The notes: generated from the sequence alone by a model not told the origin. A stretch of DNA of 64,000 bases from a virus (IMGVR_UViG_3300045988_138996:96001-160000), one strand, 5' to 3'. Counted from the first letter of the stretch, positions 1-64,000 are shown. Program-made: numbers and translations.

Positions 1-1
1 A

Positions 2-1384
2 GGTTTAAATTTAGTCGAATCTTTGTACTATGCCTATTTAGCTACAAATGATAAGAAGCAAAAATTGAATTTCTTTTATTTGTTAATGGGCGCTATTAAA
101 TTAAATAATAATAATAATTTTAATAACAATATCGATAATAATAGTAGCTTATATATTTATGATTCACAGCGAGCATTAATGAATCCTGAATTGGCTAATG
201 CATTTTTATCAGGATCTATTAAGTTATATAAATTTACCGGCAAGTTTTATGAATATCAAGATACCGTATTCTTTGATAAAGAAGACGTCGATTTATCTTT
301 CTTAGATCGAGATTATTTATATCGATTAGATATCATTGTCGACAATCAATTAATTAATAGTTATTATACATTAAATCCTACAATTGATACGACTAAGCAA
401 GTATGGGATAGATTGTATAAAATAGTAGAGTCTATTAATAGTCGATTAAATGGACTTAGATATTTACCATTGGCTTATCATAAATTCGACGAGGAAACAC
501 AACTTGCTATTAGTTTACTAATGGATAAGAATGTCGATGCTCATTATTTACAACAACCAAGAATTGGTGTCGACGAAGAATATATCACGGCACATATCGA
601 AGGCGCTAATAAATATTCTGATTTAGACGGTGTATATTTCTGTATCACTGATGTCGAAGGCTTAGCATCTGATCAAATTTTATTTAAGAAGAAAGTCGAT
701 AATTTAATTGTCGATTTACCAATACAAGGTAATTCTATCTATGACGGCTGTTATTATTCTTTTTTAACAGACTCTAATAAAAGAATTATCTCGCCAGTAA
801 CATTGTTTAATATTAATGAAGATATTGAACATGATTATATAGAGGCAACGTTAAAAATATCTCAAAAACAATTATTAAATTTCTTATACGAAGAATTTGA
901 AGAAGAAGACGTTAATAAATATTATTATTTATTTACTGATTGTATTGGCAATAATGAAGTAACATTGTCTAATTATCTTGATAGAGTTATCGATCGATTC
1001 GTACAATCTAACTTTAACGAAGACTTCTTCGATTTAATTCATTATATTAATGTATATAGATTTAGTAATCAAACATATTCTAATCAAAATTTATTAGCTT
1101 ATAATGATGAACCTGCTCATAGAATTATAATGCCTAACGATGCTAACAAAGAATATATTATGCAAGCCGTTAAGTTTAAACGTGGCGAAAATTATAAGTA
1201 TGATTATAAATTAGTTAATGATAATGCTGATTATATAACATATGACGATGCAGATTATACAGTAATTTCTATATTCGAAAAAGATACGGCAATGCATTGT
1301 GGATTAATTACGATTAATCGAATTGGTTTTGATTATCGTATTAATACATGGAATATATCTGTATCTAATAAATTAGACATTTAA
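2..1384 (+). CDS. 5'-truncated structural protein; tail sheath candidate by position only
   Basis: The frame of ORF 23..1384 stays open back to nt 2, so the gene probably starts upstream of the window; the TTG at 23 is only the ORF-caller start. It lies directly upstream of the tube-like gene. No sheath motif was recognised. An Asn run is encoded by (AAT)n at about 100-135. Confidence 0.3.
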   Translation, partial: GLNLVESLYYAYLATNDKKQKLNFFYLLMGAIKLNNNNNFNNNIDNNSSLYIYDSQRALMNPELANAFLSGSIKLYKFTGKFYEYQDTVFFDKEDVDLSFLDRDYLYRLDIIVDNQLINSYYTLNPTIDTTKQVWDRLYKIVESINSRLNGLRYLPLAYHKFDEETQLAISLLMDKNVDAHYLQQPRIGVDEEYITAHIEGANKYSDLDGVYFCITDVEGLASDQILFKKKVDNLIVDLPIQGNSIYDGCYYSFLTDSNKRIISPVTLFNINEDIEHDYIEATLKISQKQLLNFLYEEFEEEDVNKYYYLFTDCIGNNEVTLSNYLDRVIDRFVQSNFNEDFFDLIHYINVYRFSNQTYSNQNLLAYNDEPAHRIIMPNDANKEYIMQAVKFKRGENYKYDYKLVNDNADYITYDDADYTVISIFEKDTAMHCGLITINRIGFDYRINTWNISVSNKLDI

Positions 1385-1405
1385 TGAAAGGTTTGTTATA
1401 ATAAT

Positions 1406-2044
1406 ATGAGACGTAAACGATATGATAATCACCTTTCTAGTCAATTATCTTATACGAATAAAGTTGTCGAACAAGATATAACAAGAACGTCGTCTGGATA
1501 TATTAAAAAGAATCCAGTATATAAACGTTATTTTTCTCAGATCGATGCAAACGTTTGGTTCGGTGATAAACTTGTAACCGATATACAAAATATATCGTAT
1601 GGATTACAGCAACACGATATGCCTTTATTCGGATATAATTCTTACATTTACGATGAATTAGCAATAGGTAATCGACTAGTACAAGGAACGTTTACTATTA
1701 ATTTTACGGCTCCGTTATATATTGAAACTATTATAGATAGTTATCAGAATATGACAACTAATGTTACTGATAAGACAACTGAAGACGATTATAATAAAGT
1801 CATAGCTCCGCATTATGCAGGAAATGTCGTTACGACGAATCCAGAGCATAATGCTATTTGGCGTAAAGGATTTGAAATCGATATTCTATATGGACAGGAC
1901 GATGATATCATTGGTCAACCTCTTCATGTTATCTTATTAGATTGTCATATTATGTCAGTACAAACAATACATGATTCATCTGGTCATCCTATACTAGAAC
2001 AATATACATTTATATCGAGAGACCGAAAAGTAATTAATAAATAG
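1406..2044 (+). CDS. tail tube protein candidate
   Basis: 212 aa, with RBS GAAAGG upstream. The central segment 'VWFGDKLVTDIQNISYGLQQHDMPLFGYNSYIYDELAIGNRLVQGTFTINF' has the alternating strand pattern I associate with phage tube-type proteins. It sits between the sheath candidate and the chaperone-like ORFs. Confidence 0.4.
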   Translation: MRRKRYDNHLSSQLSYTNKVVEQDITRTSSGYIKKNPVYKRYFSQIDANVWFGDKLVTDIQNISYGLQQHDMPLFGYNSYIYDELAIGNRLVQGTFTINFTAPLYIETIIDSYQNMTTNVTDKTTEDDYNKVIAPHYAGNVVTTNPEHNAIWRKGFEIDILYGQDDDIIGQPLHVILLDCHIMSVQTIHDSSGHPILEQYTFISRDRKVINK

Positions 2045-2053
2045 GCGGTTAAT

Positions 2054-2632
2054 ATGCAAAATAAAAAGAAACATAAATTCCAACAACAACGTGAAAAAAT
2101 TCAAATGCATGAAACAATCACGACACAAGATACTCCAGAAGTAACTGTTAAAGAAACGACTGAAGCCGATATAAAAGAAACGGTAAAAAAAAACGAAATT
2201 TCGGAAGAATCTACAAATTCTGTGAGTCAAGATTCTAATCTTGAATATGAATACGATCCAGCTGATGTTGAATATTTAACAATCGATAAAGCTAACGAAA
2301 TTCGTGAAGCATATCCTGGTCAATGTCGTCGATTTGCTTTTGATGGTGAACAAATGATTATCATTCGTAAAGTACAACGTGAAGAAGTACCATTGATGAT
2401 GAACTTAACACCGGATCAACAAGCATATATTAATTCTTTAGAAGATGAATATGAACAACGACGTGCTATCGAAGATGCTCGTAATTATAATTTAGTTAAA
2501 TATTTTATTCCGTTCCCATCTGCTGATCGTATTAATTATTTAATCGATAATTATGTTGGTTTTGTACCATTAGTATCTGATAGAATTTTACAAATTTCTG
2601 GTTTTACTGCATCTCCGATGGTGGAATTATAA
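2054..2632 (+). CDS. tail assembly chaperone candidate (position-based)
   Basis: 192-aa acidic protein immediately downstream of the tube-like gene and upstream of the tape-measure candidate. Its stop overlaps the next start (TAATG at 2630-2634). Confidence 0.3.
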   Translation: MQNKKKHKFQQQREKIQMHETITTQDTPEVTVKETTEADIKETVKKNEISEESTNSVSQDSNLEYEYDPADVEYLTIDKANEIREAYPGQCRRFAFDGEQMIIIRKVQREEVPLMMNLTPDQQAYINSLEDEYEQRRAIEDARNYNLVKYFIPFPSADRINYLIDNYVGFVPLVSDRILQISGFTASPMVEL

Positions 2633-3435
2633 TGGAAGAACGTTTTGATGTTATATATGATCAGTTAAAAAATTACTATAAACATATCTTTACTTATTCT
2701 TCTTATGAGTTTCCTATTATTTATATTCCGTTAACTAGGGCTCAATATTATGATTTGTTCGAGGATCCTAATATGATGGATATGGAACGTGAAGATATTA
2801 TATGTAAAACTTGTATCGTATATCCTGAAAATATTAATATAGAAAAAATGCCAGCAGGTGTTGTTTCTGATATTGCTGATAAGATTTTGGAAGCTTCTTT
2901 TATGAGCGAAAAAGGACGCAAGATGTTATTTGCAGCAGCTGCTAAAAAAATGCAAAACGTCGATCGTCAAATTTCTTGTATTATTCACGAAGCATTTCCA
3001 GAATATGATATCGAAGATATCGATAATTGGAATATGTTACGCACAACAGACTTCCTTATTAGAAGTGAATGGATTCTTCGTACGATTCAAGGTAAGCCAC
3101 CGCTCGATATCGAAAAGATATTAACACAAGGCAGTGATATTACTTTAAAACCAGAAGATCCTCGATTCTATAACGAAGAAAAAGCAGAGTTTGATCGTTT
3201 ACGAGAAATCAATACTCCGGCTGAAAATAATAAACCTGTTCCTAAAAAGAAAACGACATTAAAACGTCCTCAACGTCGACGCAATCAAGTATCTGAAGAA
3301 CAACTTGCAAGTATGTTCCCAGAAGCATTTGAAAATGCTGGCGATGAAAAATCTTTTAAAGATATGGCTATGGGTTCTAAAAATCCTAACGATATGACGT
3401 TAGCAGAACTTGCAGAATTAAGAAATAATAATTAA
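2632..3435 (+). CDS. second chaperone-like or hypothetical tail protein
   Basis: 267 aa, translationally coupled to the previous ORF. It has a basic patch, 'PKKKTTLKRPQRRRNQ'. No motif was recognised. Confidence 0.25.
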   Translation: MEERFDVIYDQLKNYYKHIFTYSSYEFPIIYIPLTRAQYYDLFEDPNMMDMEREDIICKTCIVYPENINIEKMPAGVVSDIADKILEASFMSEKGRKMLFAAAAKKMQNVDRQISCIIHEAFPEYDIEDIDNWNMLRTTDFLIRSEWILRTIQGKPPLDIEKILTQGSDITLKPEDPRFYNEEKAEFDRLREINTPAENNKPVPKKKTTLKRPQRRRNQVSEEQLASMFPEAFENAGDEKSFKDMAMGSKNPNDMTLAELAELRNNN

Positions 3436-3446
3436 AAGGACAACAT

Positions 3447-6400
3447 ATGGTAGATTACTTAAAAAATGGCAGTGATAATGATTCTGCCTTCGAAGGTATA
3501 TCTAATCTAGTTGATGCAGCAGCGGTCGCCGGCACTATTGTCGGCACCGCTTTTTTGCTATCTAGAACAAAACAAGGTGCAAAATTTTTATCGGAAGTCG
3601 ATCCGATTATCGGTAAGATGTCTGATCGTATTGCTAGTATTAGCGCAGACGGTAGTAATCGTTTATCGATTAGCGAATCTATTCGTGGCATATCTCATAT
3701 CGATCAGTTTAGAAAAATAGACGAAGCATTTGCTATTAATAATACGAGCAACGTAGGTTTATTTCGTAATCTTGCCGATGCAGCTTACGATGCTGCCGAT
3801 TGGGAAGAGCGTGAACTAGGTCGACAATATCAAGCTAAAATATTTGGAGATATTGGCGACGCATTAAAAACACAAGGTATTCAAGACGGACAAGTGCAAT
3901 CTCTTATGGAGTTTGTTAGTAGTCGTTCTACATCGACAGTCATCGATAAAAATTCTGGTAAATTACAAGAAAGTTTTATTGCCGACGTTGAAAATCATTG
4001 GCATGATTTCTTAGAAGAAAAAGATGCTAAATTTAATGAGACAGTCGATCAGTCTATTCAAGCCTTACAAAATATTTCTAATCAGACATTCGACACGTTT
4101 AGTGATTTTAAATCATTAGATGAAAATATTATAAGAGCTCGTGAAGCACGTCAAGATTTTATTCAAGAAATTAATAGAAGTGCTCAAGAGGCATTAAAAA
4201 AACAAAAGAATGATATTACGTATCATACGATTGGTGACGTATTAGATAAAGATGAACTAAATCCAGAATTCGATTTTATTGTTCATGAAAAAGGTCAGAT
4301 GGCTCCTCTTGACGGGAGGACTGTATCCGATCGTTTATATGCACAAAATGACGATATCGTTACGCAAACTCTTGATACGATTAGACAATTAAGCGCTACA
4401 AAAGATGGTTATTATGTTGAAGGTCAAAAATTAAATACGCCTAATATTAATAAAATAATAGGTGGAGCTAAAGATTTATGGCACGAGACATTACCATACG
4501 CATTATCACATGCTGCAGATTTTAAAAATGTCGACAACTTAAAAGTCGAATATTTAAATAAATATGACTTTAAAGGCGTATTGGGCGACATCGTCGGCAA
4601 AGATAGTATCGTTCAAAGAATTGGCAATCGATTGTTTGAATTAAAATCTGACGGTACTCGTAATGAATTAGATACGAGTGATATGCGTTTTGTTCATGAA
4701 GATTCGTATGTCATTAAAACATCTAAAGACTTTTCTAATTATGGAAAAGTTAATTTTGATAATGGCAAGCAAAGAATCTTTGGAGAGACAAGTCGTAAAC
4801 GTACGTCTGATGTTTGGGGTAATAACTATCATACATATCTAAATAAAGATATAAACGAAATTGCAAATCATCCTGAAGAAAAAGCGATGATGGGTATTCG
4901 TAATCATAGTTTTAAACGTAGTATCGATTCATTAGATATTAAAGTAAAGCTAGACGATAAACTTCGATCTGAATTACTAAAGGCATCTGAAGATAATCCT
5001 GAATTAAGATATAAAATAGAAAGTATGCTCGATGTTATCGACGCTAAAACAGAGTCAGAAAAACGTAGAGTATTAAGGGATATCTCGACAGAAGGTACTA
5101 AATCATCTGAATTTCAACGGTTACAATCAGCAGCTATTCGTGGCCGTTCTATTAAACCTAAACTAATCGATGATTCTACATCTATTACACAAAAAACATT
5201 ATATGCTAAATTAAATAAATCACAGTCTATTGATGAAGCAGCTATTAATGAAATAATGGCATCACTTCCTGCTGATAGAGATAAAGCATTAGCATTTATT
5301 AATAAATTAAATGTACCAGAAACTGTTAAGTTAAATTTAAGAGATCGATATAATGTCGAACAGTTAAAAATTAGAACTAACTTAAATGAAATTACTGGCG
5401 AAAATCATGTCGATGCAACTGGTAAAGATTTAAGTATTGAAGACGCCAAGAGGATTCAGAATGAAATCGTAAGCAATCCTGAATTACAAAGAACATTAAA
5501 TCGTTATTTAGGATCAGGTAAAGATTATAAAGCTCGTTATGAATCTAAAAAAAGTTCATCTCGCTTAATAGCAATTAATAAAGGATTTGACTTAAAAGGT
5601 ATTATGTCAGACCTAAATAAGATGAACTATAATGGCATTAATAATCGTATAGGTCAAGGTCTTCGAGGTATGTTTTCCAATACAAACCTCGATCATTTTG
5701 CGTTTAGTTCTATCTTTGATAATAATGTAAACTTGCCGACAGCAAAACATCATGGACGTGATTTATCGATTGGTGGCAGCTTATTATATAAGATGCCAGA
5801 ACGTCTTAATGAAGGCTTAAATAATGGCTTCATAGACCAAGCTCTTGGTTTTGTTCATCCAATATTTGGCGAACGATTATCAGCTTATTTTAAAACCGGA
5901 TTAAGTCTTGGTTTTCATGAAGGCGATACGAGAAGTTTTGCGCAATTAAGTTATAACTTATTATTTAAACGTGTATTACCAGCATCAATTGCGTTAACTC
6001 AATTAGATTGGGCTAACGATACATTCGGAATTAATAAAAACTTCCAAATTGGCTTAGCTAATATGGATTTAGGTTTTAGAAAATTCACGGATGCTACCGG
6101 CTTAACAGATGTATTTAAGTTAGCTAAAATGGCTAACCCTGCCGCTCAATATATTAGTGGTGATTATCGTCCTTATCAGTCTTATGAAGAACGTTTAGAT
6201 TATTATCAAAACGGTAAGGATCCTATTAGATCTGGACGTTATTGGGTATGGGGTTCTTCAAATGAATTTCGTGGTTCTAGTATTTCATATTGGGAAGATA
6301 ATAGTTTAAAATTAGCACAATCTGATTATTATAATAAATCAGTATATGGTGGCTATTGGTCTAAATGGGCACATAGTCCTATTCCGACATTAACAAATCC

Positions 6401-9400
6401 TTTCTCTCCATTAGTATATGCTTTTAACCCATACTGGTTAGAAGAAAAACATATGGAGGATCGCCCATATCCATTATCAGCTCCTTTATTTGAACAAGGT
6501 ACATTACAAAGTTTAGTATTAAATCCAACGCTTGGCGAAATTATTAAACCACAACGTCGTTATCATGAAGATCGTATGTGGTTTGGTAAAGACGTTAAAG
6601 CTATTATGTACCAAATGAATCAGAAAATTCAACAAACTGCCGATGAAGATAGTCGTTATATTATTTTCCAAAATGGTCGTTTGGGCGTATATGATTTTAG
6701 AGCATTTGGTCATCCGACAGATACAGAATATGTACAAGGTCAAGAACAAGAATATACTGGACAAGCTCCGGCGTTTGCATCGGCTAGAGATTATTCTAAT
6801 TATATTAATAGTGATGGTACGATAGATGCATCGGCATATGCTAGTTTGCAACCAATTTCTCCTGGTGCAGGTGCTGCCGTATCAGCAATGAATAGTGCTA
6901 TTCAATCAGGTAGTTCTCCTTATACGAATGCTTCGGGTATGTATATTCAACAACGTATACGTCGTACACGAAGCAATAAAGGCACTGTTCAAGAGATGCT
7001 CGATAATGCCGACATGTATAATAACTTGATGAATTCGAGTGGTGGTCGTAGTTATCTCGATGAATTAATGACGACATCTCGTTTGTTAACTGGTATTTAT
7101 GGTTATGCAGCATCATCAGTATTTGGTCGAGATGAATCTAAGTTTATTGCCGATGCTGGCGATATTAATTCGTTTACTCGGAGATTCTGGGATTCTGGTA
7201 TCGGCGGTGTCGGCGGTGAACAAATGGAAATTATTCGTCGTTTCTTGCCAGAATATTCAAGACGACGTCGTATTAATCCATTAATGAATAAAATGGCTGA
7301 AGACCATCCATGGCTTCCAGAAAAATTCTATACAGGTGATCCTTTTAGTTCCTTACCTATGGGTGAAGCTCGTTTACCTGGTGAAGGTTATGAAGCTATT
7401 AATCAATTACATCCAGATCAGTTTGCTTCCGATGGATATGGTGCTATCGATCGTTATAAAATATTAGCCGATATTGCTCCGAATAGTGCTGAGTATAAAT
7501 ACTGGAAACAAATCGTCAAGATGATGAATAATGACGAGGCGAAGAAAGTATTAAAAGATACCGAAGAAATGGTTAAACATCAAGGAAAGAAACATGATTT
7601 CTTTGATTATAAATTCTTAGGCAAAACTACGACAGCTCTCGATGGACATATCGAACAAATATTATCGAACGGTAAATTTAAGTTAGCAGGCGACGATAAT
7701 TTATATCAAATTGCCGGCATTAAATTTAAAGATAATGGTTATATGTCTAAGAATCAGTTAAAACAAGTATTAACTGAAGGTTCTCATGTAACGTTACGTA
7801 TTGACGATGAAGAGCATAATCCAGATATTAATGCACCGCAAGCTCCTAGAAAAGCTGCCGTATTTTTAGATGGTGAAAATATTTCAGATACATTACGGCA
7901 AGTTGGTTTAGCTGATTATGATATGGAAGATACTTCAGCAGCAGGTGCTTATGCGAACTATGGATTAGTCGGAAGATTATTTGGTACGGCTGCCGAAATC
8001 ATAGCGCATGCTCCAATTCCGATTATTCACTCACAATTGATGCGTGTTAATAGCCCATTAGAAGAATATCGCTCCGATCAATTATATGGTACAGGATTTC
8101 AATCTTGGGATAGTATGTTAGCTTCATTTATATATCCGACATTCGAACAAGCTAAAACAGATTTTATGCGAGATGTAATATCTGATTCATTGTGGCGATT
8201 CTATAAAGGATATGAATCTGGCGCTTTAACAGAAAATATTAGTAAGCGTTCGACAACGATATTAAAAACTATTGCGACGTATAGTAATGGCACTGCCTTA
8301 GCAGGGGAAATTGCTGGACGTTTTACATTTACTGGCGCTAATTCATCGACTCGTCGTGATCAACTTGCTAATGCAGGTCGACATATCGGTAATATCTATT
8401 CGATGGTAACTTCACTTCAAGATCCTATGTATGCTGCTTATGCATGGGGACGAATGGGCTGGGATTCTTCTAAAGTATATGATTTATGGAAAGATGTCGG
8501 AAATGTAAATTTCGATTCTGTTCTCGATTATGCTGAGCATATGAATATACTTAAACCAGCAAAACTATTAAGTGAAGAATCAGGTGTAGCAGTCGATGTA
8601 ATTCAAGCTGCTCGTAAATTTAAATTAGGACGTATTTCTCAGGCAATAGCATTTGCTGCTGCCGGTACGGCTTTAGCTGTCGGTGAAGATAATCCGCTTA
8701 CTCGATTATTCGGTAAAGAATCTCATGTATATACTCCTGACACAGTAAAAGAACGTTGGGATACTGAAGATTATTTCGATAGATTACGTTATATTAAATA
8801 TATGGCATTATACGAAGCAGCTAAAGAAAAAGCCAAATCAGAAGAAGGCGTCGATGTCGATAAATTATATAAACATCAAGAAACTCTTCGTGCCGAGATG
8901 AATGGTGATGTAAGCATAACCGATATGATGTCGGCAATTCTTACATCTGGTAAACCTGCCGATGATCCGATAGCTCAATGGGTTCAAAAAACATTCGGTC
9001 GTTTAAGCGACGATATGACGACATTAGTAGCTGGCAAATATACTGAACAAGCGATTATGTTCCATCAAGTTGCAGAGTCAACTGTATATGCTTTAAATAA
9101 AGATAGCGAATATTCTGATATTATTCGTGCTTTACCAAATACGGAAAAAGAATATTTCGTAGAATTTGCTAAAGTTACAGACGAACGTCGTCGTAGAGAA
9201 ATTCTTAGAAACGTATCGCCATCATTAGCAAAAGCTTTAAAGCTTGTTTGGTATCAAGAAGATACAGATACAGAATCGAACGAATCATTCTTTGAACGTC
9301 ATAATTTGCCAGATCCATTATGGGCTGGTTGGGATGCGTCTACTAATTTAGATAATATTAAAGCAAAAGTTATTTATAACGAAGGTATGCAATATGCCGA

Positions 9401-9650: not shown

Positions 9651-9667
9651 TAAGTTAAGAGGTAACA

Positions 9668-41703: not shown

Positions 41704-41706
41704 TTC

Positions 41707-42154: not shown

Positions 42155-45100
42155 TTGAAACCTACATGGGGCATTCGCAAATTAAATGAATATTCCGTCG
42201 ATAAAAATACGGCAATTATCATTACTGATAGCGAAAAAGATAATTACTATTGGGCCGATATTCCTGATGGCTCATTATTAGTTAATGATAAAACTGGTAA
42301 TCTTTCTATTAAATTAACAGGAGAATCTGATTGGGTACCGATGGGTATTCGTAAAGACGGTACTGAAAAATTAGTTAAAGATGCGATTATTAACGTCGAA
42401 TATTATACGATTGTTAAATTTGAATTAGAACATAATCGATTCTATTATCATGACCGTGAAGAAATTACTCGTATCGGTAAGTTAATTAACGGTAAAGCTC
42501 AGTTTAAAGTTGGTTCTGGTTTGTATTTACCAGGAACTAATCAACTTGAAGTATTGATTAACGATAGTATTCATCGTAATACAGTCGATGGTGGTCTTGA
42601 AGAAATTAATATGAAGTATTTCCAAATCGATGCCGACGATATTCGATTGGGTTCTACTGTTACGGTTCGTTATATTAATTACGAACGATTAAGTGAATTA
42701 TATCCATTTATCTATACACAAGAACAAGTTCCTTGGTTTTTTGAAGATAAAGACTTATGGATTAATCCATCTGACAACGTTGATATCAATGGATTAACAA
42801 TTACACCATTAAGTTATTATGTAAAATATTTAGATAATAACGAAGCTGAAGTTATTGTATTTACGACAAAAAATTCTCGATTAATTGCATCGAGAAAAAT
42901 GAACGAATATGTAAATAAAATTACGGATAAAAATATTAATCGTTTCAAAGTGACGAGAGAAAATAATAATTTCTATATTAATTTATTTTCGACATATCCT
43001 GGATATAAAACTTCGTTTGCTAAAGTTTTAATTAAAGGATTAATTTCTGACGAAGATAAATTAACACTCGATGTTGATTTAACGTACCCTAATAGTGGTA
43101 TGGCTAAGACATCTATTAAGACACAACTTGGTAATATCGTTACGATTAAACGTAATAATAAAAAAATCTATGCTGCACAAAATATCGGTATCGGTGTACA
43201 ACATACATTAGCTCGTGAGGATCATGATTATGATATTATAGTATTTGTTAAGAATCCGATAAATGGCTTAACTAAAGAAAAAGTATTAACTGTTGACCAT
43301 CGAAAAATTGTTTTAATGGCCGATATAAGCCATGAAACAACTAATACTGGAACGAACATAACAATATCGACAATATCAAATGCCGATGTGAAAATAGAAG
43401 TGTTAAATGATGTAACAAATCAATTTGAAGAGATTGTTTTAGGTCGCTCTAATGAGTCTGGGAAATATAATTTTATTGTTCCTATTACCACTGCAAAAAA
43501 AAGATATAGAGTAATTATTTCTAGCGATAAAGCAGATAACAAGATTAAAGAAGAATTTGATGTATTTTTACATCGTGGTTCTCCTGAGTTATCTGCATCT
43601 CATACAAGAAATAAAAACGACATTTCTTTAACGATAAAAACAGAATCTGGTTCTAGAGTTTTGGTTAAGTATAATGGAAACATTATTCATTCAAATATCG
43701 CCGATATTAATAATACTGATATTTATATGTTTGATGCAGATTATGAAAAAGATAGGGTATTCGTAATTGAGTCGACGAAAGAAAATAAGATTTTTGAAAC
43801 TATTAATTATACTATTCCAAAATCAGAAAAATATATTCCAGATATTCTGTTATCTTTAAAACAAATCCCTGCAAACTTTATTAACGAAACAAATACATAT
43901 CGATATGAAGGTAGTTTCCTTAATATAAAAACAGAATCTGGATCACTTATTACTGTATACAATGAAGACGGAACATTATATAAAGATAAATTTAATCCTG
44001 ACGGGATTGAAAATTTATTATCTAATAACTTCTCCGACGGCGGATTATCTTTAACAAATCTTCCATTAAATAGACGTAAGTATTTTTTGCCACAACGCAG
44101 AACAGATAAAGTATATAAATTAAAGTCTATAAAGCACGGAAAAATAGACGAAGAAATAACTTTTACTGTTTTAGGCTCTGGTCTTAATGAATACGAAGCA
44201 ACTTCTGATGACAATAGTTATGTATTAAATCCTTATATCGACCTTTATGAAAATTCTGATTCTTATAGAACTTTCAAAATTAAAATAATAAAAAGAGATG
44301 AGTTCTCTGAACCGTCTATTTATTCTCCATCTAAAGTTCAAATAAAAAATAAACCAGATACATTAATTACTTATAACAATATTGATGGTAAAGACTATTT
44401 TAAAGATCCTACGCTGTATGGTGGTCCTTCTTCATATAGTGTTTATTTTGATAAAATAAATAATACATATAAAGCCAATCAAAAACTTTTAAATCATTTT
44501 ATGAATTTAAGATCTGATAATTCTTTTGGTTTTTCCATTCCAGTTAAAATTAACAATATTGATGAATTAATAAAGACTCAAACATATACATTTGTTGTCG
44601 ATAATGATCAAGAATACACTTTTACATATTCTCCTGTAATGCTTCACTATAAGAATCTTGATGATTTATTAATTAGAGTATCTTCTGATAGAATGAATAA
44701 TTCTGAATATAAAGATATCATAAACAGCATTAGCAGAAAAGGATATGATTCCTCTGTTTATTTATCTGGTGCTGATTATGTTACAAAATATGCTTTAAAT
44801 TCAAATGTTAAAGTTATTCATCCATCTTTAATTCGTCATATATCTATTTCTACTGATAGAGGATATAATTTAGAAACAGAAAAAAATAGTTTAGTTTCCA
44901 AATTAAAAGAAAAAGAATACATCAAAAATGATGAGCAAGAAGTAGTTGTTGATAATTTTAATCTTTTTGGGAATCAAAAATTAATTAGAACAAAAGAAGA
45001 ACGTAACCATGTTTATGTTTTACAACTTTCTAATTCAATAGAATTATTTCCTCTTAATTTCCAATATGAATATGCAACAGCATTACTTAAAAATAATAAA

Positions 45101-49630: not shown

Positions 49631-49660
49631 CTATTATTATAACTATAATGGAGTTTTTAC

Positions 49661-51211: not shown

Positions 51212-51220
51212 GTTAGTTCT

Positions 51221-52488: not shown

Positions 52489-52491
52489 TAT

Positions 52492-55400: not shown

Positions 55401-55770
55401 CGAGATTCGTCAAGACTATAAACGTAAAGAAGAAACGTTTAAAATGAAATATAATCGTATTCCAGAATTTCCGATTAATGATTATGATATCGATCCTCAA
55501 GTTCTCGAAACAAAAGACGAAGTTTTATTTTATATCAACGGTCTGTTTACAGGATTAAGTCGTAATATAGTAAATGGATACGTTTTAAATAAATATAAAA
55601 GTTGTATTACGTTTAATGATCGAAAAGTTGCAGCATTGCTTGCTAACGATCCTTTATATATAGACTTGTATGAAAATCCTGATAAAATGGAAGCTTGGAA
55701 AAAACGTACAGGTAAATCTGAATATACAACGAGTATAAAACATTATATCACTTATGATTATCGTGTTTAG
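52492..55770 (+). CDS. large tail fibre protein with reiterated beta-sandwich modules
   Basis: 1092 aa. N-terminal fibre motifs are 'HGALWRNDRTNELKYYDGVKKAWVNI' and 'PIKGQLWIYNGILLYFDGREWKPI'. There are at least 5 copies of the 'l.vf.NG.....dy......i.f' module ('LTVFRNGVRQILDVDYVESDDGTTITF', 'RLVVYRNGVRLPKDDWTLIGNKTIQI', 'ILFLDGMLINPKNIIWNKDYHYLTL', and others). Confidence 0.5.
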   Translation: MKKNRTFKQGRGSEQLFNQEMYDIFLAVKDINPDMTEQEKVSGSKAVPDNITHGALWRNDRTNELKYYDGVKKAWVNIYDNKFQLITHLMEETTPANPIKGQLWIYNGILLYFDGREWKPIKSIQADDAQFNEAAFADFALVSPLLSVGNVTVPSLRNEDSKRYENELKTGYQASKDNYSEKTTEFDTEWGDPFTAPKHDLLVDPNHRTQYVIPNVNNDRIFIENSLVDDYEKVNTVCFQYPTVKAQDKNLSALHINAQKLSNITKRLFKINKDDSNTNAIIDINPNNTEFYGFKAGEYKGDHLYPYRESFETGITNSTANSLNNTSGVPEVDAINARLHPEINYNKPDKPTVDKLGKKQDVSMKDDPDKRFGDYVIMHKQIALNYRTVQNYDYILAVTYDFNWINYTGSLKKLNNGNLFQGFHIPDLPESINLFFDGLMLEEQFYDVDLKNQLVKLEDKVYKEDEVHIFKNFVKDSGYIVETNLDNQGIIQLHKEFKSPLVFVAGELIHPTFGGLIYRDNKIFVPRAKVNMPWTVIETYVPGEDNAYAAGTVNFDNNIVAGTNRVLNTENGKPNIDATAIYNTGDQSLIVQQGQIGHSGNNMIYYDPRVITDTDEVILFLDGMLINPKNIIWNKDYHYLTLKDGLFPGQEYLLLRDPDDRLFDGASAMDTYYVGALSDSLVYHNGKLLCNQQPLISPVSPKDRQPSTADGEVVLFMPDNLTDAATVQIYDDYKKLWRLANEKELKDIKRIVTSYENTVSSVKMNIPVLPEDSINIFAYKFASDTENAIKIGDFMLDSTDPTNRTYHMQYDKYLPRVNSLTVFRNGVRQILDVDYVESDDGTTITFLCPANDIKIGEKIHYTIEQLEVGASKVMDVITLDNTNSIGTNVYEIPTQTELYLYPGRLVVYRNGVRLPKDDWTLIGNKTIQIIKSDRPYIGTTASNYPNESFYKRETDSSYTVHHNYPDRITIEIRQDYKRKEETFKMKYNRIPEFPINDYDIDPQVLETKDEVLFYINGLFTGLSRNIVNGYVLNKYKSCITFNDRKVAALLANDPLYIDLYENPDKMEAWKKRTGKSEYTTSIKHYITYDYRV

Positions 55771-55779
55771 GAGAACATA

Positions 55780-57837: not shown

Positions 57838-57850
57838 TTTAATAATATAT

Positions 57851-57877
57851 GCCGGGGGCTATGCCCTCGGCTTTTTT
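57851..57877 (+). terminator. rho-independent terminator
   Basis: 'GCCGGGGGC tat GCCCTCGGC' forms a 9-bp stem (one G-U pair) with a 3-nt loop, followed by TTTTTT. It starts 14 nt after the stop of ORF 55780. Confidence 0.8.
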
Positions 57878-57895
57878 GCTGTCTAAGGAAATATA

Positions 57896-58762
57896 ATGAT
57901 CGTAGATAACAAAGATTTTCAAGAACAATTAAATATATTAAAAGAAGGTATCGATATTCCACAACTCGATCCTTCGAAGATTATGGATTCAGAAGAATTT
58001 AATACATTTTTTAATGGCGTCGAAATAGCATTAAATAATATCACTCAAAATATTAGAGTATTAGAAGACGCTAACGATTATTTAGTAAAATATGTTAACG
58101 ATACTATAGATAAGAAATATAAAGATATTAATGATAAGTTATTAAACTTAGAAAAGAATTATTCGTTATATCAAGATAAAAATTTTATTACATATAATGT
58201 AGAACTAGATTCTAGTAAAGATATATTAGATCGAACTGGCAATGCAATTAGTACTGTCGATTATGTTACGATGCAATCTGGCACAATCGATTTATTTAAA
58301 AATATCTCGGCGGTCGAACCATATTCTGTTGATATTGATAAAGAACATGGGTCTGCCGTTATTTGTTTTTCTAAAAATGCAATTACGCAAAACAATACAA
58401 AAGTCGGTACATTTATTATTAAATTATTAGAACCGATTACTCTTAATATCGTAACATGCGATTTAATAAATTGTGTCGGTAGTTTTACGATTAATAACTC
58501 GATTCAAGAATATCAGTTTAATTCATATTTTAAACCACAAGAAGTTTCGTTAATAGTCGTTACGTTAAAATCTGGAAACCCTTCGACTGAATTTAAATCT
58601 GTAAGAGTTAATCATTCGAAAGGATTTATGGATAATGATTTTTACGGAGATTTTTCGATTAGTCAAAATTCTGAAAAAGCAAAAGAACAGCAAATGGCTG
58701 AAATTTATTACAAAAACGATGTTACGAAATATTTAGGAGAAAACGATGGCCGAAGAAACTAA
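57896..58762 (+). CDS. hypothetical protein (N-terminal helical region + beta-rich domain), post-terminator module
   Basis: 288 aa with RBS AAGGA. No motif was recognised. Confidence 0.6.
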   Translation: MIVDNKDFQEQLNILKEGIDIPQLDPSKIMDSEEFNTFFNGVEIALNNITQNIRVLEDANDYLVKYVNDTIDKKYKDINDKLLNLEKNYSLYQDKNFITYNVELDSSKDILDRTGNAISTVDYVTMQSGTIDLFKNISAVEPYSVDIDKEHGSAVICFSKNAITQNNTKVGTFIIKLLEPITLNIVTCDLINCVGSFTINNSIQEYQFNSYFKPQEVSLIVVTLKSGNPSTEFKSVRVNHSKGFMDNDFYGDFSISQNSEKAKEQQMAEIYYKNDVTKYLGENDGRRN

Positions 58763-59453
58763 GATTAGTCAAAAACTTACCGTTAAAGATATCGGTATTG
58801 TTTTAGACGATAAAGATACAATTAGTACTATTAGCCATCCGATTCCAGCTCGTAAAGCTAATCAATCTGATATTATTAATACACAAATTACGAATTATAA
58901 ATTTGGTATCAATAATTTAAATTTGAAATACGATAATGCTACACTAACATCTGGCACAATATCTAAGTTAATTCAAATAGGTAAATGTGATTATGTTACA
59001 TTAAATACATCGTTACATCAACAACGTAAAGAAGATTATTATGGCGTTGAATTTTCTATTATTGATAATAATAAAGAAAAGCCTATTATCCCATATAATC
59101 AATCACAAGTGATATATGAAAAATTATATTTAAAACTACCGTTACGTTTTCAAGCTAATAAAACAACTCCTATTATTGTTAACGAAGTAACGAAAGATGG
59201 TATAGTATTATATAATACATATAATACGTTATCAGATTTTGAAAATGATCGTAATGTAATCGATAATCAGATTGCTAGTAATAAAAAAGAATTAGTTGTA
59301 TCTTATGTACCGATTAAAGGAAAACGCATTGCAGTCGATAGCGATAAGATTTATTTGAAGATTATTAAACATGTATATGTCGGTAATATGCCTGTGAAGA
59401 TTGAAAATATTATTATTAATGCTCATGGAGGAAAACTCGAATGGAAGATTTAA
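58746..59453 (+). CDS. hypothetical protein
   Basis: 235 aa with a 17-nt overlap with the previous ORF. No motif was recognised. Confidence 0.6.
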   Translation: MAEETKISQKLTVKDIGIVLDDKDTISTISHPIPARKANQSDIINTQITNYKFGINNLNLKYDNATLTSGTISKLIQIGKCDYVTLNTSLHQQRKEDYYGVEFSIIDNNKEKPIIPYNQSQVIYEKLYLKLPLRFQANKTTPIIVNEVTKDGIVLYNTYNTLSDFENDRNVIDNQIASNKKELVVSYVPIKGKRIAVDSDKIYLKIIKHVYVGNMPVKIENIIINAHGGKLEWKI

Positions 59454-60820
59454 AAAATACGACTGTCCGACAAGCCTATCTTCAAGCATTAGCCGACGAT
59501 AAAAAATTTGATGTATATAAAAAGAAATCGTTATTAAGTCCGAATCAACCATTATTCGAACCTCATTATATTAATGACGAAGAAGAAATATCTTACGATA
59601 ACGTTAACCAGAACGTTCTTGAAACGTCGTTCGATATTTTAAATCTTAGTATGAATGTCATCGATAACGTAAGCGAAATTGAAAATTTAATGTACGATGT
59701 CGATGAGCGTATTAAAAGTATCGACGAAAAGATTCAGGCCGAAGAAGAACGTGTTAAAGACGTTAATATGATTTGCGGAAATATAACAGACTTCAATACG
59801 ATCATCCCGTTAACAGTTAATAACTTTTCAATTAAATCTACATTATATCAATATCGTAATTGTATAACAGCTTCTCAAGTTAATGAGAAAAAAGCTACTT
59901 TACGCTTAATTAATATTAATGGTAATGGTTTTGTCGGTAACGATTATATCGTATCTAAACAATCTGATTTAGTTATGCAAAAAGATTTAATGGATATGTC
60001 TAACGAATCGTATATGTATGATACAATCGGCAATTTATTTTGGGAATATAGCCGATTGTTTAGTTATGATTCTGTTAATAAATCTGATATTGTAAATATC
60101 GATGATTTGCCAGTTCAAGTTCAACTTACATTTCAGTCAATATCTAATGATGGCGTAAATGAAATCGTATTCTCTGATACAAGTGAAGTTCATATTACGG
60201 CTATCGAAATATCTGACGATAACGTAAATTGGCATACGACGTTCGAAGGCGATATCATTCCGAATAAGCAAGATAATAGTTACTCTGATTTTACATATAT
60301 ATATGGTACTGGTGCTTTAGTATTTCCGACAACACAATTCGTAAGACTATCGATGTATAGCCATAAGATTGACGATAATAAAATTAAGATTAATAATACG
60401 ATTAATCCTAATATTTCTCGTAAAGTTATTCGTATCACGTCGGTCGAAGGTCGTCGAACAGAATTTAACAACGGAACTGGATTGACTCCAAACTTAATCG
60501 AATCTGGTCGTGCGATTGCTGTCGGTATATTCTGTAATGAATATGTTCCGGATTTTATTAGGAATAATTTACGAAACGAAGTTACGTATACATTAATTAT
60601 TAATGGTAAACAATATAATGTCGTTCCTATTAATAGTAATCGACGCGGAATTAAATTTATTAAATATTCGAAGACATCATTAAAAGAAAATTATGTCGAA
60701 TATATTAATGAGCCAATTTCAAGTATTCAAATTGGTTTAACAATTCCGACAACATATAATTATTCTCCATATTTAGCTAATTTTAAATTGTGTTTAGGAA
60801 AGCAGGTGTCTAATGTATAA
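59441..60820 (+). CDS. hypothetical protein (helical N-terminus + jelly-roll-like domain)
   Basis: 459 aa. The coiled-coil-like 'IENLMYDVDERIKSIDEKIQAEEERVKDV' is followed by 'VNEIVFSDTSEVHITAIEISDDNVNWHTTFEG', which has a discoidin/galactose-binding-like flavour. This is weak. Confidence 0.55.
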   Translation: MEDLKNTTVRQAYLQALADDKKFDVYKKKSLLSPNQPLFEPHYINDEEEISYDNVNQNVLETSFDILNLSMNVIDNVSEIENLMYDVDERIKSIDEKIQAEEERVKDVNMICGNITDFNTIIPLTVNNFSIKSTLYQYRNCITASQVNEKKATLRLININGNGFVGNDYIVSKQSDLVMQKDLMDMSNESYMYDTIGNLFWEYSRLFSYDSVNKSDIVNIDDLPVQVQLTFQSISNDGVNEIVFSDTSEVHITAIEISDDNVNWHTTFEGDIIPNKQDNSYSDFTYIYGTGALVFPTTQFVRLSMYSHKIDDNKIKINNTINPNISRKVIRITSVEGRRTEFNNGTGLTPNLIESGRAIAVGIFCNEYVPDFIRNNLRNEVTYTLIINGKQYNVVPINSNRRGIKFIKYSKTSLKENYVEYINEPISSIQIGLTIPTTYNYSPYLANFKLCLGKQVSNV

Positions 60821-61985
60821 AGATCAAGTTTATAAGTTAGAATATTATAAACAAAAATTGATTAGTCAATCACTTTCTCTCGGTGAGTTTTTAAATGAAA
60901 GCTCATTAGATTCTGCGCTCGAAGATTACGAAACACAATTTGCTTTATTTAAACATCGATATATTCAAAAAGGATCGAAACTCGACGTAAAAGATTTTAA
61001 TAATGAATTAGCTATTCTCTATCAAGATCTATTAATTTTATATCAAGTTATGTATGATATAACGATTAAGAGATTTAATAAAACTAAAGAATTAGTATCG
61101 ATTAAATTAAATGATTTAGAACGAATAGCCGATCAATATTATAGTCGTTGTAAGCTCGAAACGATTGCTATATTTGGTGATACGTTAGTATATCAAGCTG
61201 ATAATTTTGACATAACGAATAAAAATGGGAAAAGTTATATTAAGTTACCTAGTTTTACGACGTATGAAGGCGCTACGTTAGCATTTTTAGCAAGTGTCGA
61301 TAACTTAGACAATGCTAACGTTATTTTAGAATTAAATCCTAGTCAGAATATTCAGAATTATGAATCGAATGAAAATTTATTTGTCGTTCCTGGCGAACCA
61401 GAAATTACGACTAAATTTTTTGAATTAGATTCTAGCAACAAATATAACGGCAGTTTTATACTTGAACACAATCCAGATAATGCTTATCAAAGTCAATATT
61501 TTATTTATAGTGGTAAAGATATGATTAATATTGACGGACGCTATATTAGTATTAGTGAGTATAATAAAACTGATTTTAGTACAGAATATAATATCGAGTT
61601 ATATATTTATAATGCAACACAGGCCGATTTTAATTTCTCGTTAGAACCATTACGATCTAATATTGATAATCATTATGTTACGATTAAAGATCGAGTTCAA
61701 AAGTTTACGTTTAAAATGGCACCGTATTCTCATTTATCAGTTAATACTAATGGTATTGTATTTTGTGCTGTCGACAAATGTCGAGTAAAGGATAATCGAT
61801 TATACTCTAGAACGTTTTATAATAATGTATATAGTTATATGTTAGAAACAGTTAGTTATAATAAAGAAGTAATATATACTAATCCAGTAGCTGTTATCGA
61901 TAATCCAATAAATAAAGAAATCAAAATTAAATCGTTAGCTGTTAAACAAAATAGGTATAGTGATTATGATCAAGTACAATATTAG
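60813..61985 (+). CDS. hypothetical protein (helical N-terminus + beta-rich domain)
   Basis: 390 aa with an 8-nt overlap. No motif was recognised. Confidence 0.6.
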   Translation: MYKDQVYKLEYYKQKLISQSLSLGEFLNESSLDSALEDYETQFALFKHRYIQKGSKLDVKDFNNELAILYQDLLILYQVMYDITIKRFNKTKELVSIKLNDLERIADQYYSRCKLETIAIFGDTLVYQADNFDITNKNGKSYIKLPSFTTYEGATLAFLASVDNLDNANVILELNPSQNIQNYESNENLFVVPGEPEITTKFFELDSSNKYNGSFILEHNPDNAYQSQYFIYSGKDMINIDGRYISISEYNKTDFSTEYNIELYIYNATQADFNFSLEPLRSNIDNHYVTIKDRVQKFTFKMAPYSHLSVNTNGIVFCAVDKCRVKDNRLYSRTFYNNVYSYMLETVSYNKEVIYTNPVAVIDNPINKEIKIKSLAVKQNRYSDYDQVQY

Positions 61986-62175
61986 AAATAACGGGCCGTG
62001 GGAATACGATAAATTTGTTCTAAATTATTATAATCTTCACAATGAAATTATGCTTAATAAAATTAAGTTAAATATTGAAGAATCTAGAAATAAACAGATC
62101 GACGATATTTATAATCGTACGTTAGAACAAAATCAAACGGCTAAGTTGTATCGTAAAATAAATTATACAGTCTGA
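61960..62175 (+). CDS. small hypothetical protein
   Basis: 71 aa. The start is GTG at 61960 or ATG at 61966. It overlaps the previous ORF by up to 26 nt and has a poor RBS. Evidence for coding is only its length and its fit into the gap. Confidence 0.35.
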   Translation: MIMIKYNIRNNGPWEYDKFVLNYYNLHNEIMLNKIKLNIEESRNKQIDDIYNRTLEQNQTAKLYRKINYTV

Positions 62176-62183
62176 GGTTATTA

Positions 62184-63326
62184 ATGGAAGTAAAAAAGAC
62201 ATCTAAATATTTTGTTGATTTAGTCAAATCGATGAAAGAAGATTATACGAATTTACAATCTTCTATTAATAATCAACATAATAGTTATAATAAGAAATTA
62301 GAAATAATGAATGCGATGTTAGAATATAACAATTCATTATCTTCTCGTCTCGAAAAAGATTTCGATGCATTGCGTGAAAATAATCGTATAGTCGAAGCGA
62401 TGTACGATGGAAATGCTATGCATCGTAAAAATATATTTAATAGTAACAAAGTATTATTTGTTGATAGCAATAAGATATTAAAAAATAATTCTTCTTACGA
62501 CACATATGGTAATTGTGTTCATCCTAAAATTATCGGCAATCTAGAAAATGTTTTGAATTTTAATAGTTCTGTCGGTTATATTTTTAAACCATCAGCAACT
62601 GTTTCTATTAACGGTGAAAGTAATTCTGAATATGTAAATATTTTGAAGCACGATACAATTGCCGATAAGGCTCCTGTGTTCGATCAGTATACGAGTAATG
62701 TATTAACTGTTACGATTGATTTTCCAGATAATCCATTAGTCGGTGCTACGAATTGTAATGCTATTGAATTATCACCATTTTTAGCTGGTGCTGCCGTATT
62801 AAAAGCAATTACGATTATTACGACACCTGGTACTCAGTTGTCAAACGATGCGATTATTATGGATTACGATCAACCATTAGAAGATACAAGGATTTTGTTT
62901 GATAGCATATATGCTATCAAAACTTTAACGTTATCTTTTGATTTAACATTTACTAATAATTTAGGTTTATATCCATTCGGATTGCGACATATTTATTTGT
63001 ATAATGCTAATTTCGATACAGAACGTAGCAATATCGTTATTCGTAACGATTATCAAAATCTTATTAAATATATTGACGATGGTATTATTATTTCTAATCA
63101 AGACGGTAGTAATACATCGAATAAATATTCGGCTCATGAAACTACATGCAGCGAACAAGGTATTAAATTATATAGCTATTATGCTAATAATAATTTATTA
63201 TATCAAATCGAAACCCATACACGAGATTTAGCAAATCAATTATCTAGGAATACGAAAGTATTTTATGCCGATATCCCTGTAAAGAAAGCAATGTATTCTA
63301 TTGAGTTTAAGAAAGTCCGTACTTAG
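62184..63326 (+). CDS. hypothetical protein (helical N-terminus + beta-rich domain)
   Basis: 380 aa with RBS GAGGT. The stop codon TAG lies in the loop of the downstream terminator hairpin. Confidence 0.6.
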   Translation: MEVKKTSKYFVDLVKSMKEDYTNLQSSINNQHNSYNKKLEIMNAMLEYNNSLSSRLEKDFDALRENNRIVEAMYDGNAMHRKNIFNSNKVLFVDSNKILKNNSSYDTYGNCVHPKIIGNLENVLNFNSSVGYIFKPSATVSINGESNSEYVNILKHDTIADKAPVFDQYTSNVLTVTIDFPDNPLVGATNCNAIELSPFLAGAAVLKAITIITTPGTQLSNDAIIMDYDQPLEDTRILFDSIYAIKTLTLSFDLTFTNNLGLYPFGLRHIYLYNANFDTERSNIVIRNDYQNLIKYIDDGIIISNQDGSNTSNKYSAHETTCSEQGIKLYSYYANNNLLYQIETHTRDLANQLSRNTKVFYADIPVKKAMYSIEFKKVRT

Positions 63327-63340
63327 TACGGGCTTTTTTT
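63315..63340 (+). terminator. rho-independent terminator
   Basis: 'GTCCGTAC tta GTACGGGC' forms an 8-bp stem with one G-U pair, followed by TTTTTTT and then aTTTTT. Confidence 0.75.
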
Positions 63341-63362
63341 ATTTTTATTCTTATGGTATAAT
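63334..63362 (+). promoter_or_regulatory. sigma70/sigmaA-type promoter candidate with extended -10 (TGgTATAAT)
   Basis: TG at 63354-63355 and TATAAT at 63357-63362. The -35 region is only a T-tract. It lies 42 nt upstream of the ATG at 63404, which has a strong RBS, AAGGAG. Confidence 0.45.
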
Positions 63363-63403
63363 AATAAAGAACAATGTAAAAGTCCACGAAGGAGAAATAA
63401 CCT

Positions 63404-64000
63404 ATGATTGATGCTATGTGGTACGAAGCCAATATTCTTGGTCATTCTACCGATAAGACATATATAACTCAATATACAATCGATTATCTATATGATAATG
63501 ATATGAACGATTACGATATCATAAAGATTCTGTCCACGTTTAAAAAAGAATCGATTAAATATTGTGATCTGCCTAATTCTTTATGGAATGATAGTTTACT
63601 TAAACGTGATACTTATTATTTCAACTCTAAACTGCAAATTCTATCGAAGCCACCAACTCTTTCGATAGATGCTAATATCACGCCTAAAGATATTAAATTT
63701 TTTAAAGAAATGAAAATTTCGTTTACGAAGGACGATTTACTACGTTTCTTTTATTCAAAATCTAATTCTTTAATCGTAAAAGATTATAATCGTGATATAG
63801 GTGCTATCGATTATTTGTTAAATCGATATAATAATCAACTTATGGAATCTGTCGACATTTGTTTATATTTAATAGATGAATACTCTTATTGCGTAAGTTC
63901 ATTATTAAATTTAACAAATTACGAAGTCGATATTCTCGATAAAGTAAATACAATATATTATGATAACTATAGATCAGGCACAAATAGAATTATATACAGA
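63404..64000 (+). CDS. 3'-truncated hypothetical protein (start of a new transcription unit)
   Basis: Not in the supplied ORF track because there is no stop before the window ends. My own translation gives 'MIDAMWYEANILGHSTDKTYITQYTIDYLYDNDMNDYDIIKILSTFKKESIKYCDLPNSLWNDSLLKRDTYYFNSKLQILSKPP...', 199 codons open to nt 64000. RBS AAGGAG sits 8 nt upstream. No motif was recognised. Confidence 0.6.
   Translation, partial: MIDAMWYEANILGHSTDKTYITQYTIDYLYDNDMNDYDIIKILSTFKKESIKYCDLPNSLWNDSLLKRDTYYFNSKLQILSKPPTLSIDANITPKDIKFFKEMKISFTKDDLLRFFYSKSNSLIVKDYNRDIGAIDYLLNRYNNQLMESVDICLYLIDEYSYCVSSLLNLTNYEVDILDKVNTIYYDNYRSGTNRIIYR

Follow-up and report, generated by a model that had tools for sequence, protein, structure and literature searches.

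The tetranucleotide TCGA, often extended to ATCGAT or GTCGAC, is over-represented in a stretch of 64,000 nt of viral DNA (IMGVR_UViG_3300045988_138996:96001-160000, positions 1 to 64,000), referred to below as the window. The excess is the top end of a strand-symmetric, clade-wide preference for C before G, and not a restriction, methylation or binding motif. The window has a GC content of 31.1%, is 98% coding, and carries every open reading frame (ORF) on the + strand, including giant ones (2067, 2569, 3176, 1694, 1664 and 1092 aa). Pfam and PHROGs searches of the window proteins gave almost no match, and no match to the window was found among GenBank phages. Many copies, near-identical as well as diverged, have been identified in IMG/VR, in human-associated samples, on contigs measuring up to 236.5 kb.

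The genome has been read on contig IMGVR_UViG_3300007996_000009 from 98.9 to 230.5 kb (131.6 kb of ~236.5 kb, or 56%). Structural genes found there encode a tail lysozyme, a portal, the major capsid protein and a protein with a weak sheath-like match. Replication genes encode a DnaB-like helicase, RecJ and a 1115-aa DnaE-type polymerase, and a weak match to sigma-70 region 4 was obtained. A YadA/Gp10-like fibre and a single-domain amidase are also encoded by this contig. Since these replication genes are found together with tail and capsid genes, the window is part of an oral jumbo phage of ~230-236 kb, AT-rich (~31% GC), contractile-tailed and myovirus-like, which has its own replisome and resides in human-associated metagenomes. 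The genes feature Shine-Dalgarno sites and use the standard genetic code; an alternative code is ruled out by the stop codons (18 TAA, 7 TAG, 5 TGA) and by the contiguity of the ORFs. The stretches searched yielded no tRNA genes.

TCGA counts and the flanks of CpG

The window hosts 529 TCGA, one per 121 nt, with a mean of 8.2 per kb. The mononucleotide expectation is 181.7, or one per 352 nt, close to the one per 300-350 nt estimated by eye in a preliminary description of the sequence. The ratio of observed to expected counts (O/E) is thus 2.91, the highest among all 4-mer palindromes in the window. By the same measure, ATCGAT occurs 111 times versus 21.5 expected (5.2-fold), and GTCGAC 24 times versus 4.4 (5.5-fold). 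The excess persists in synonymous shuffles preserving the protein sequence and the codon usage of each gene: genic TCGA number 517 versus 257.7 +/- 12.5 (2.0-fold, z 20.7), and ATCGAT and GTCGAC are enriched 3.05- and 3.7-fold, respectively. The preliminary description, in which TCGA and its two extensions were said to be frequent, is borne out under both models. Its hand counts are exact for nt 1-720 (25 CpG, 14 of them in TCGA) and nearly so for nt 20,040-21,000 (14 TCGA, about 15 reported). The density of one TCGA per 50-70 nt given there does not extend to the whole window, the two counted stretches lying in the densest bins. Nor do most CpGs sit in TCGA, as had been stated: 529 of 2,420 (22%) do, and 61% are found inside WCGW.

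The enrichment outlasts control for codon usage, shrinks when dinucleotides are taken into account (O/E 1.54 under a first-order Markov model, Markov-1), and is gone when trinucleotides are (1.02 under Markov-2), so the excess first reported stands against the first control and fails against the last. Phase-aware Markov-2 ratios are 1.09, 0.96 and 0.98 in the three codon phases, and ATCGAT and GTCGAC measure 1.04 and 1.06 under Markov-4. Because the excess disappears under Markov-2, the 4-mer itself is not the special unit; CpG and the trinucleotides TCG and CGA are. The word-deviation test for restriction-modification bias, which looks for deviations beyond those predicted by sub-words, came out negative. 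The view of TCGA as a restriction-site palindrome, from which the preliminary description started, was misleading, the relevant unit being CpG with its flanks. The claim that the motif is independent of frame holds in that O/E exceeds 1 in all phases (2.74, 1.39 and 1.19); it fails in that 353 of the 517 genic TCGA (68%) lie across codon junctions as xTC|GAx, the phase with the highest ratio.

CpG rho is 1.57 window-wide, and 1.77, 1.59 and 1.87 by codon phase. CpGs at codon junctions exceed the synonymous shuffle 1.82-fold (z 27.7). At silent C/T third positions, the fraction of C is 0.31 before G; T comes next with 0.17, and A and C follow with 0.10. The next two bases refine the figure (GA 0.42, GG 0.30, GT 0.25, GC 0.10). 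The codons CTC, GTC and ATC are mainly used before G. CTC had been described as rare outside the context ctcgat, and in the CTY family the C fraction is indeed 0.47 before G, and 0.03-0.15 elsewhere.

The bases flanking CG weigh differently. In terms of odds ratios against the non-CpG baseline, the 5' flank ranks T (~5), C (3-4), A (~3) and G (1.4-1.8), and the 3' flank A (~5-6), G (3.3), T (1.8-3) and C (1-1.3). Values are alike whether the variable base is a C at codon position 3 or a G at position 3 (NCG codons), and the hierarchy is its own reverse complement, i.e. strand-symmetric. A process that works on double-stranded DNA should produce such mirror symmetry, and tRNA-specific decoding should not. 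The most enriched 4-mers relative to the synonymous shuffle are CGAT, TCGA, GTCG/CGAC, ACGA and ATCG, and the transition neighbours of TCGA are depleted on both strands (TTGA 0.63, TCAA 0.73). As a strand control, words resembling the Shine-Dalgarno sequence (AGGAGG, with one mismatch allowed) fall short of expectation on the + strand alone (O/E 0.56, z -6.6).

Two further candidates have been rejected. Promoter avoidance, whether of the TTGACA -35 box or of the TG-extended -10, is ruled out: exact TTGACA does fall below expectation on both strands (0.35-0.37), but full promoter-like combinations and TGnTATAAT do not (1.03-1.28). Avoidance of off-frame stops or starts is ruled out as well, as contexts forming ATG are not the strongest, and TAA and TAG show no avoidance out of frame.

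Other composition biases mark the window. TTC is preferred to TTT before C and before T (C fraction 0.61 and 0.49), pointing to T runs being avoided. Palindromes other than TCGA are depleted, as CTAG (O/E 0.40), ACTAGT (2 copies versus 21.5, or 0.09), CTATAG (3 versus 21.5) and CTTAAG (5 versus 21.5), and both GTGCAC and CCTAGG are missing altogether (0 copies each versus 4.4 expected). CGCG is found at 0.32 of expectation, and CCCC occurs in 1 copy.

Distribution among genes, relatives and strains

The regions referred to below are the following.

Window 1..64000, no strand: whole-window signature; CpG rho 1.57, 529 TCGA.
Window 1..1000, + strand: densest TCGA bin; 16 per kb, accounting for half of the CpGs of the bin, in an Asp/Glu-rich ORF (23-1384).
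Window 20001..21000, + strand: second densest bin; 15 TCGA per kb, within the 3176-aa ORF.
Window 6001..7000, + strand: bin free of TCGA; 35 CpG, rho 1.09, within the 2067-aa ORF.
Window 44400..45000, + strand: patch lacking the signature; C before G 1/31, within the 1664-aa ORF.
Contig 3300007996_000009, ~214.9-219.2 kb (L156:16677-20989): four-gene block, function not assigned, lacking the CpG/TCGA signature.
L222:5336-8158: capsid module, consisting of the major capsid gene and the gene upstream of it, lacking the signature.

TCGA are spread nearly evenly along the window (variance/mean 1.39 in 1-kb bins), and CpG rho exceeds 1 in 63 of the 64 bins, the exception measuring 0.84. Density is not uniform, and the bin without TCGA at 6001..7000 is a local fluctuation. 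Among 53 genes of at least 200 aa, the odds ratio of C before G is >1.5 in 90%, with a median of 3.5. Genes without the signature are an ORF resembling LAGLIDADG endonucleases, the capsid gene (odds ratio 1.6) with its neighbour, and the four-gene block (0.4-1.4). The block and the capsid module have a GC content of 0.36-0.41, and C-ending NAY, ATC and TTC codons are raised in the capsid gene and in the block. In the latter, CGA, ACG and TCG codons are reduced to 2, 2 and 3% from 21, 21 and 11%.

The four-gene block is probably made of highly expressed genes. A recent horizontal origin of the block was considered and dropped, as its 368-aa gene, the one used in the homologue search, is 80-93% conserved across the clade. 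AlphaFold2 modelling of the 368-aa protein gave a predicted local distance difference test (pLDDT) score of 32.

In a set of 60 genes, C keeps a constant fraction before G, and its fraction in other contexts varies; the latter correlates negatively with the log odds ratio (Spearman -0.82). As the bias is weak where codon selection looks strong, the signature is a silent-site state under weak codon selection, expression level being deduced here from gene function and codon usage. The placing of the bias at the DNA level rather than at translation, as first proposed, is supported by the gene-to-gene pattern, the effect being weakest in capsid and codon-selected genes, and by the flanks, one self-complementary hierarchy serving two codon phases.

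The signature is not confined to one phage. All of the first 33 relatives fetched, which reach down to sub-clades at ~63% protein and ~74% DNA identity, feature it (CpG 1.23-1.74, TCGA 2.2-3.4-fold, Markov-2 ~1.0), as do ten more members sampled in the replication region (CpG 1.14-1.60, TCGA 1.7-2.8-fold). Phages of other groups compare as follows.

Staphylococcus phage K: CpG rho 0.45, TCGA O/E 0.18.
Fusobacterium phage Fnu1: CpG rho 0.16, TCGA O/E 0.05.
Bacteroides phage crAss001: CpG rho 0.03, TCGA O/E 0.04.
T4: CpG rho 0.91, TCGA O/E 0.66.
Moorella phage MTATph1: CpG rho 0.81, TCGA O/E 0.61.
Campylobacter phage CP220: CpG rho 0.62, TCGA O/E 0.71.

Three distant jumbo phages sharing the DnaB-sigma-RecJ-DnaE synteny measure 0.85/0.83, 0.28/0.17 and 1.40/0.93 (CpG rho/TCGA O/E). 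The signature is not general among AT-rich phages. A literature search for a CpG-rich phage signature returned nothing specific. In crAss001 (MH675552, 60,000-100,000) 5 TCGA were counted in 40 kb, Arg CGN codons amount to 1%, and the silent C fraction before G is 0.01. As a dinucleotide anomaly, the near-absence of CpG in this phage goes much further than the excess described here, and in the opposite direction.

Turnover of the sites has been analyzed in pile-ups of strains at least 88% identical (82 kb; 7,716 sites with two alleles, the rarer one taken as derived). The rate of silent C>T changes is flat (range 0.27-0.36), measuring 0.318 at CpG, 0.309 elsewhere and 0.283 at TCGA. Hypermutability of the 5-methylcytosine (5mC) type is absent at CpG and at TCGA. 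Silent T>C changes depend on context. They reach 0.28 at TTGA, and 0.227 before GA, 0.197 before GG, 0.163 before GT, 0.127 before GC and 0.115 before non-G, ranking as in the compositional flank hierarchy. Creation of CpG from TpG is context-dependent. Gains and losses of CpG are balanced (621 versus 539); outside CpG, rare T>C changes prevail over C>T (1065 versus 400; contrast with CpG, Fisher p 4e-24). The pattern recurs in nearly every strain, and singletons show a larger surplus of rare T>C outside CpG than commoner variants do (p 5e-4). C outside CpG appears to be purged, which calls for fixation bias or selection on top of mutation input.

Single TCGA sites are not preserved. At conserved xTY|GA sites, compared over ~6,800 aligned codon pairs of seven loci, both sub-clades carry C with an odds ratio of 1.7-7.6, versus 2.5-5.3 and 2.6-4.0 in the two control classes, and no positional conservation of TCGA between sub-clades was detected beyond that of control silent C/T sites. 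As co-occurrence is no higher than in controls, individual TCGA are regenerated statistically rather than conserved.

Some regions of the genome deserve separate mention. In the window, the three adjoining giant ORFs at 3447-26933 (2067, 2569 and 3176 aa) match no family, except that residues 188-261 of the second resemble an RNase_H_2-type exonuclease domain. At contig 114,850-116,355 (L038:6113-7618), an ORF-free stretch of 844 nt with higher GC is followed by the LAGLIDADG-like ORF (GC 0.25, odds ratio 0.3); the two adjoin the sheath-like gene, and might represent a homing element or a mobile intron. At the DnaE loci (L064-L107), the match to DnaE is 3,345 nt long in some strains and ~4,540-4,745 nt long in others, and in distant relatives L153 and L155 the gene is in two pieces. 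The differences in length and the split gene suggest insertion of an intein or a homing endonuclease. A 1413-aa ORF (L091:18757-22998; GC 0.38) features a GpC rho of 2.03 and a CpG rho of 0.99, and keeps the C-before-G preference (odds ratio 3.2).

Possible origins of the C-before-G preference

A lineage-specific, neighbour-dependent substitution bias acting on DNA, i.e. a genome signature, is the reading to which we give somewhat better than even chances. Among the three causes offered in the preliminary description, an unusual context-dependent mutational process is the one favoured by the data. According to this scheme, a general pressure would push C and G residues outside CpG to T and A, and a strand-symmetric bias at weakly constrained sites would retain the C:G pairs which form CpG, chiefly in the contexts TCG and CGA. 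No factor would recognise TCGA as a 4-mer. TCGA would become the most conspicuous word because, as a palindrome, it joins the two most favoured half-contexts, and would be affected from both strands. The source may be sought in the spectrum of mutations made, or of mismatches corrected, by the enzymes of replication and repair (the DnaE replisome of the phage, host factors, or both). The driver may be mutation input or fixation bias, and there is a hint from polymorphism that the latter contributes.

Several observations do not fit easily a neighbour-dependent substitution bias. Ordinary intergenic DNA (0.5-3 kb per strain) has a CpG rho of 0.96-1.3 and a TCGA O/E of 0-1.5, and in a 4.2-kb ORF-poor region CpG rises to 1.44 from GCGA repeats, TCGA being found at 0.57-fold. 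The lack of intergenic TCGA excess is the chief reservation about a purely mutational reading, because a pure mutation bias should mark neutral non-coding DNA too; the non-coding stretches compared are short, few and visibly functional. At codon junctions the full TCGA word is slightly preferred beyond its parts (phase-aware O/E 1.09, z 3.6), with a log-odds interaction of ~1.6-fold. Rates of rare variants predict an equilibrium C fraction of 0.27-0.50, and 0.12-0.64 is observed. Since the predicted range is narrower, some fixation bias or selection is needed beyond mutation input. Furthermore, the minor allele served to polarise the changes, and not every singleton need be young.

As to the non-coding DNA itself, one intergenic set, of only 450 nt, has a CpG rho of 1.68, and TpG and CpA are depleted in the ORF-poor region. 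The latter (L196:13600-17800, contig ~223.7-227.9 kb) hosts arrays of ~9-nt GCGA-rich repeats (AGCGAGCGAAGCGAG), repeated elements of the TATATAGTATA type, 122-nt direct repeats, and a full-length Rfam match to OTKONC RNA (RF03053; 157 bits, L196 15128-15288). This region may serve in regulation or as an origin.

Alternatively, the bias could be linked to methylation. A phage or host methyltransferase specific for CpG or TCGA, possibly assisted by a Vsr-like T:G endonuclease or a glycosylase, would lift counter-selection and turn TTGA and TCAA into TCGA. Enrichment of TCGA (2.0) along with depletion of both derivatives (0.63 and 0.73) on both strands is what such a process should leave. Vsr action is graded over partial sites, as the effect is here, and CpG gains and losses are balanced while C is lost elsewhere. 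We nevertheless consider this origin unlikely. There is no excess specific to the 4-mer (Markov-2 1.02), every NCGN word except GCGN and NCGC is favoured, and the C>T rate at CpG and TCGA (0.28-0.32 versus 0.31) carries no 5mC footprint. Intergenic DNA is not enriched in TCGA. No methyltransferase, Vsr or base-modification domain was detected by Pfam or PHROGs in the 56% of the genome scanned (contig 98.9-230.5 kb), nor did a regular-expression screen for methyltransferase and Vsr motifs, including PCQ...ENV, find any in the same interval. The TCGA methyltransferase or hypermodified base initially put forward thus finds no support in the absence of excess beyond TCG and CGA, of C>T hypermutability, and of a gene in 131.6 of ~236.5 kb. 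A part played by N6-adenine methylation, or by genes in the other 44%, is still conceivable. The search for a methyltransferase in the rest of the genome, which had been suggested as a check, has been carried through this portion, with a negative outcome.

An equally low probability is assigned to mimicry of a host rich in CpG and TCG, the phage inheriting the mutation, repair and deoxynucleotide environment of the cell. Phages generally resemble their hosts in dinucleotide signature, and distant jumbo relatives of the same family vary in CpG (0.28, 0.85, 1.40), as expected if they track their hosts. The phage, however, replicates with its own DnaE, DnaB and RecJ, and host mimicry is a variant of the substitution-bias reading, a like process with another owner, rather than a true alternative. 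Two scans of genome collections for the host gave no match. No host was pointed to by tblastn searches with DnaE and the endolysin against phages, and with a protein of the four-gene block against plasmids. Homologue searches with the endolysin, RecJ and one block gene named none. The only named bacterial matches of RecJ (Arcobacter, Ruminococcus, Caminibacter, and a metagenome-assembled genome of the Campylobacterales) share ~32-33% identity.

Selection on codon pairs during translation is slightly less probable than either. NNC-GNN pairs such as ATC-GAT and GTC-GAC would be decoded better than NNT-GNN, and C would be chosen before G. The enrichment is concentrated at silent third positions, with 68% of TCGA across the codon junction, and ordinary intergenic DNA lacks the excess, as this hypothesis predicts. 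It does not account for a like flank hierarchy in NCG codons and at the 3' junction, which involve different tRNAs and a different phase and are related by reverse complementarity. Moreover, the effect is weakest or reversed in capsid and most selected-looking genes (1.6 and 0.4-1.4 versus a median of 3.5; Spearman -0.82), and CGA, ACG and TCG codons drop from 21, 21 and 11% to 2, 2 and 3% in the conserved four-gene block.

A comparably small chance is left to an active mechanism favouring CpG in the clade or its host, such as correction of T:G mismatches in YG contexts independent of 5mC, or modification of bases in CpG context, CpG being a maintained trait. If so, CpG-forming C alone would be exempt from a strong genome-wide purge of C and G, and CpG-rich DNA would be maintained as a self-mark or a counter-defence rather than by passive drift.

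A role of TCGA, ATCGAT or GTCGAC as functional sites (nicking, packaging, binding of virion or replication proteins), also raised at the outset, is very improbable: the raw over-representation and the small junction synergy speak for it, but the 529 sites are near-evenly spread, 6-mers are not in excess under Markov-4, turnover is free (C>T 0.28 at TCGA versus 0.31 elsewhere), co-occurrence between sub-clades does not exceed that of control sites, and TCGA is rare (0.57-fold) in the ORF-poor regulatory region, where binding sites are expected.

Comparison with known systems

The excess of a palindrome can be a by-product of lower-order composition, and Markov-2 models, phase-aware nulls and codon shuffles are needed before restriction-modification logic is applied. 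The signature (CpG ~1.5, TCGA ~2-3-fold at 31% GC) is a marker for binning this clade of jumbo phages and for testing host assignments. An AT-rich clade with CpG at 1.5-fold is a natural contrast to other AT-rich phages (0.03-0.6), and the contrast lends itself to studies of how dinucleotide signatures are established in phages with their own DnaE replisome. Interest would rise if a CpG-directed repair or modification activity turned up in the remaining 44% of the genome or in the host.

Avoidance of restriction sites, i.e. of palindromes, in phages has reportedly been described by Gelfand and Koonin in 1997 and by Rocha et al. in 2001. TCGA is a short palindrome of the type recognised by TaqI, ClaI and SalI, and other palindromes of the window are depleted as usual. 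Here the sign is opposite, enrichment instead of avoidance, and the effect belongs to CpG and its flanks. Because the word does not deviate beyond its sub-words, neither avoidance nor enrichment of restriction sites is involved.

The footprint left by Dcm/Vsr very-short-patch repair on oligonucleotide frequencies in E. coli, said to have been recognised by Bhagwat and McClelland and by Merkl et al. in 1992, is similar in that a target word is enriched, the T-bearing words derived from it by transition are scarce on both strands, and partial sites respond in a graded manner. In contrast to E. coli, neither a C5-methyltransferase nor a vsr gene has been found in the 56% of the phage genome scanned, C>T changes of the 5mC type are not in excess, the enrichment is fully explained by trinucleotides, and intergenic DNA does not share it.

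Codon-pair or codon-context bias is reportedly due to Gutman and Hatfield (1989) and Tats et al. (2008) as a concept. The choice between C and T in third position is strongly tied to the first base of the next codon in the phage, as in those cases. Unlike codon-pair bias, the preference is phase-independent, symmetric by reverse complementarity, and negatively correlated with the strength of codon selection.

The closest parallel is the genome signature of Karlin and co-workers. As in genome signatures, the bias is uniform over most genes and among relatives down to ~63% protein identity, is strand-symmetric, is visible mainly at weakly selected silent sites, and deviates in genes which look strongly codon-selected. 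It differs from them in its direction, CpG being raised 1.5-1.6-fold, versus 0.03-0.62 in AT-rich comparators, and in the strong dependence on flanks (TCG/CGA ~5-fold odds), fixation bias being suggested beside mutation input. The phenomenon can be classed with known genome signatures and with codon-context biases of the neighbour-dependent kind; direction and strength (CpG ~1.5 and TCG/CGA ~5-fold odds in a phage with 31% GC), along with the hint of fixation bias, set it apart within the class.

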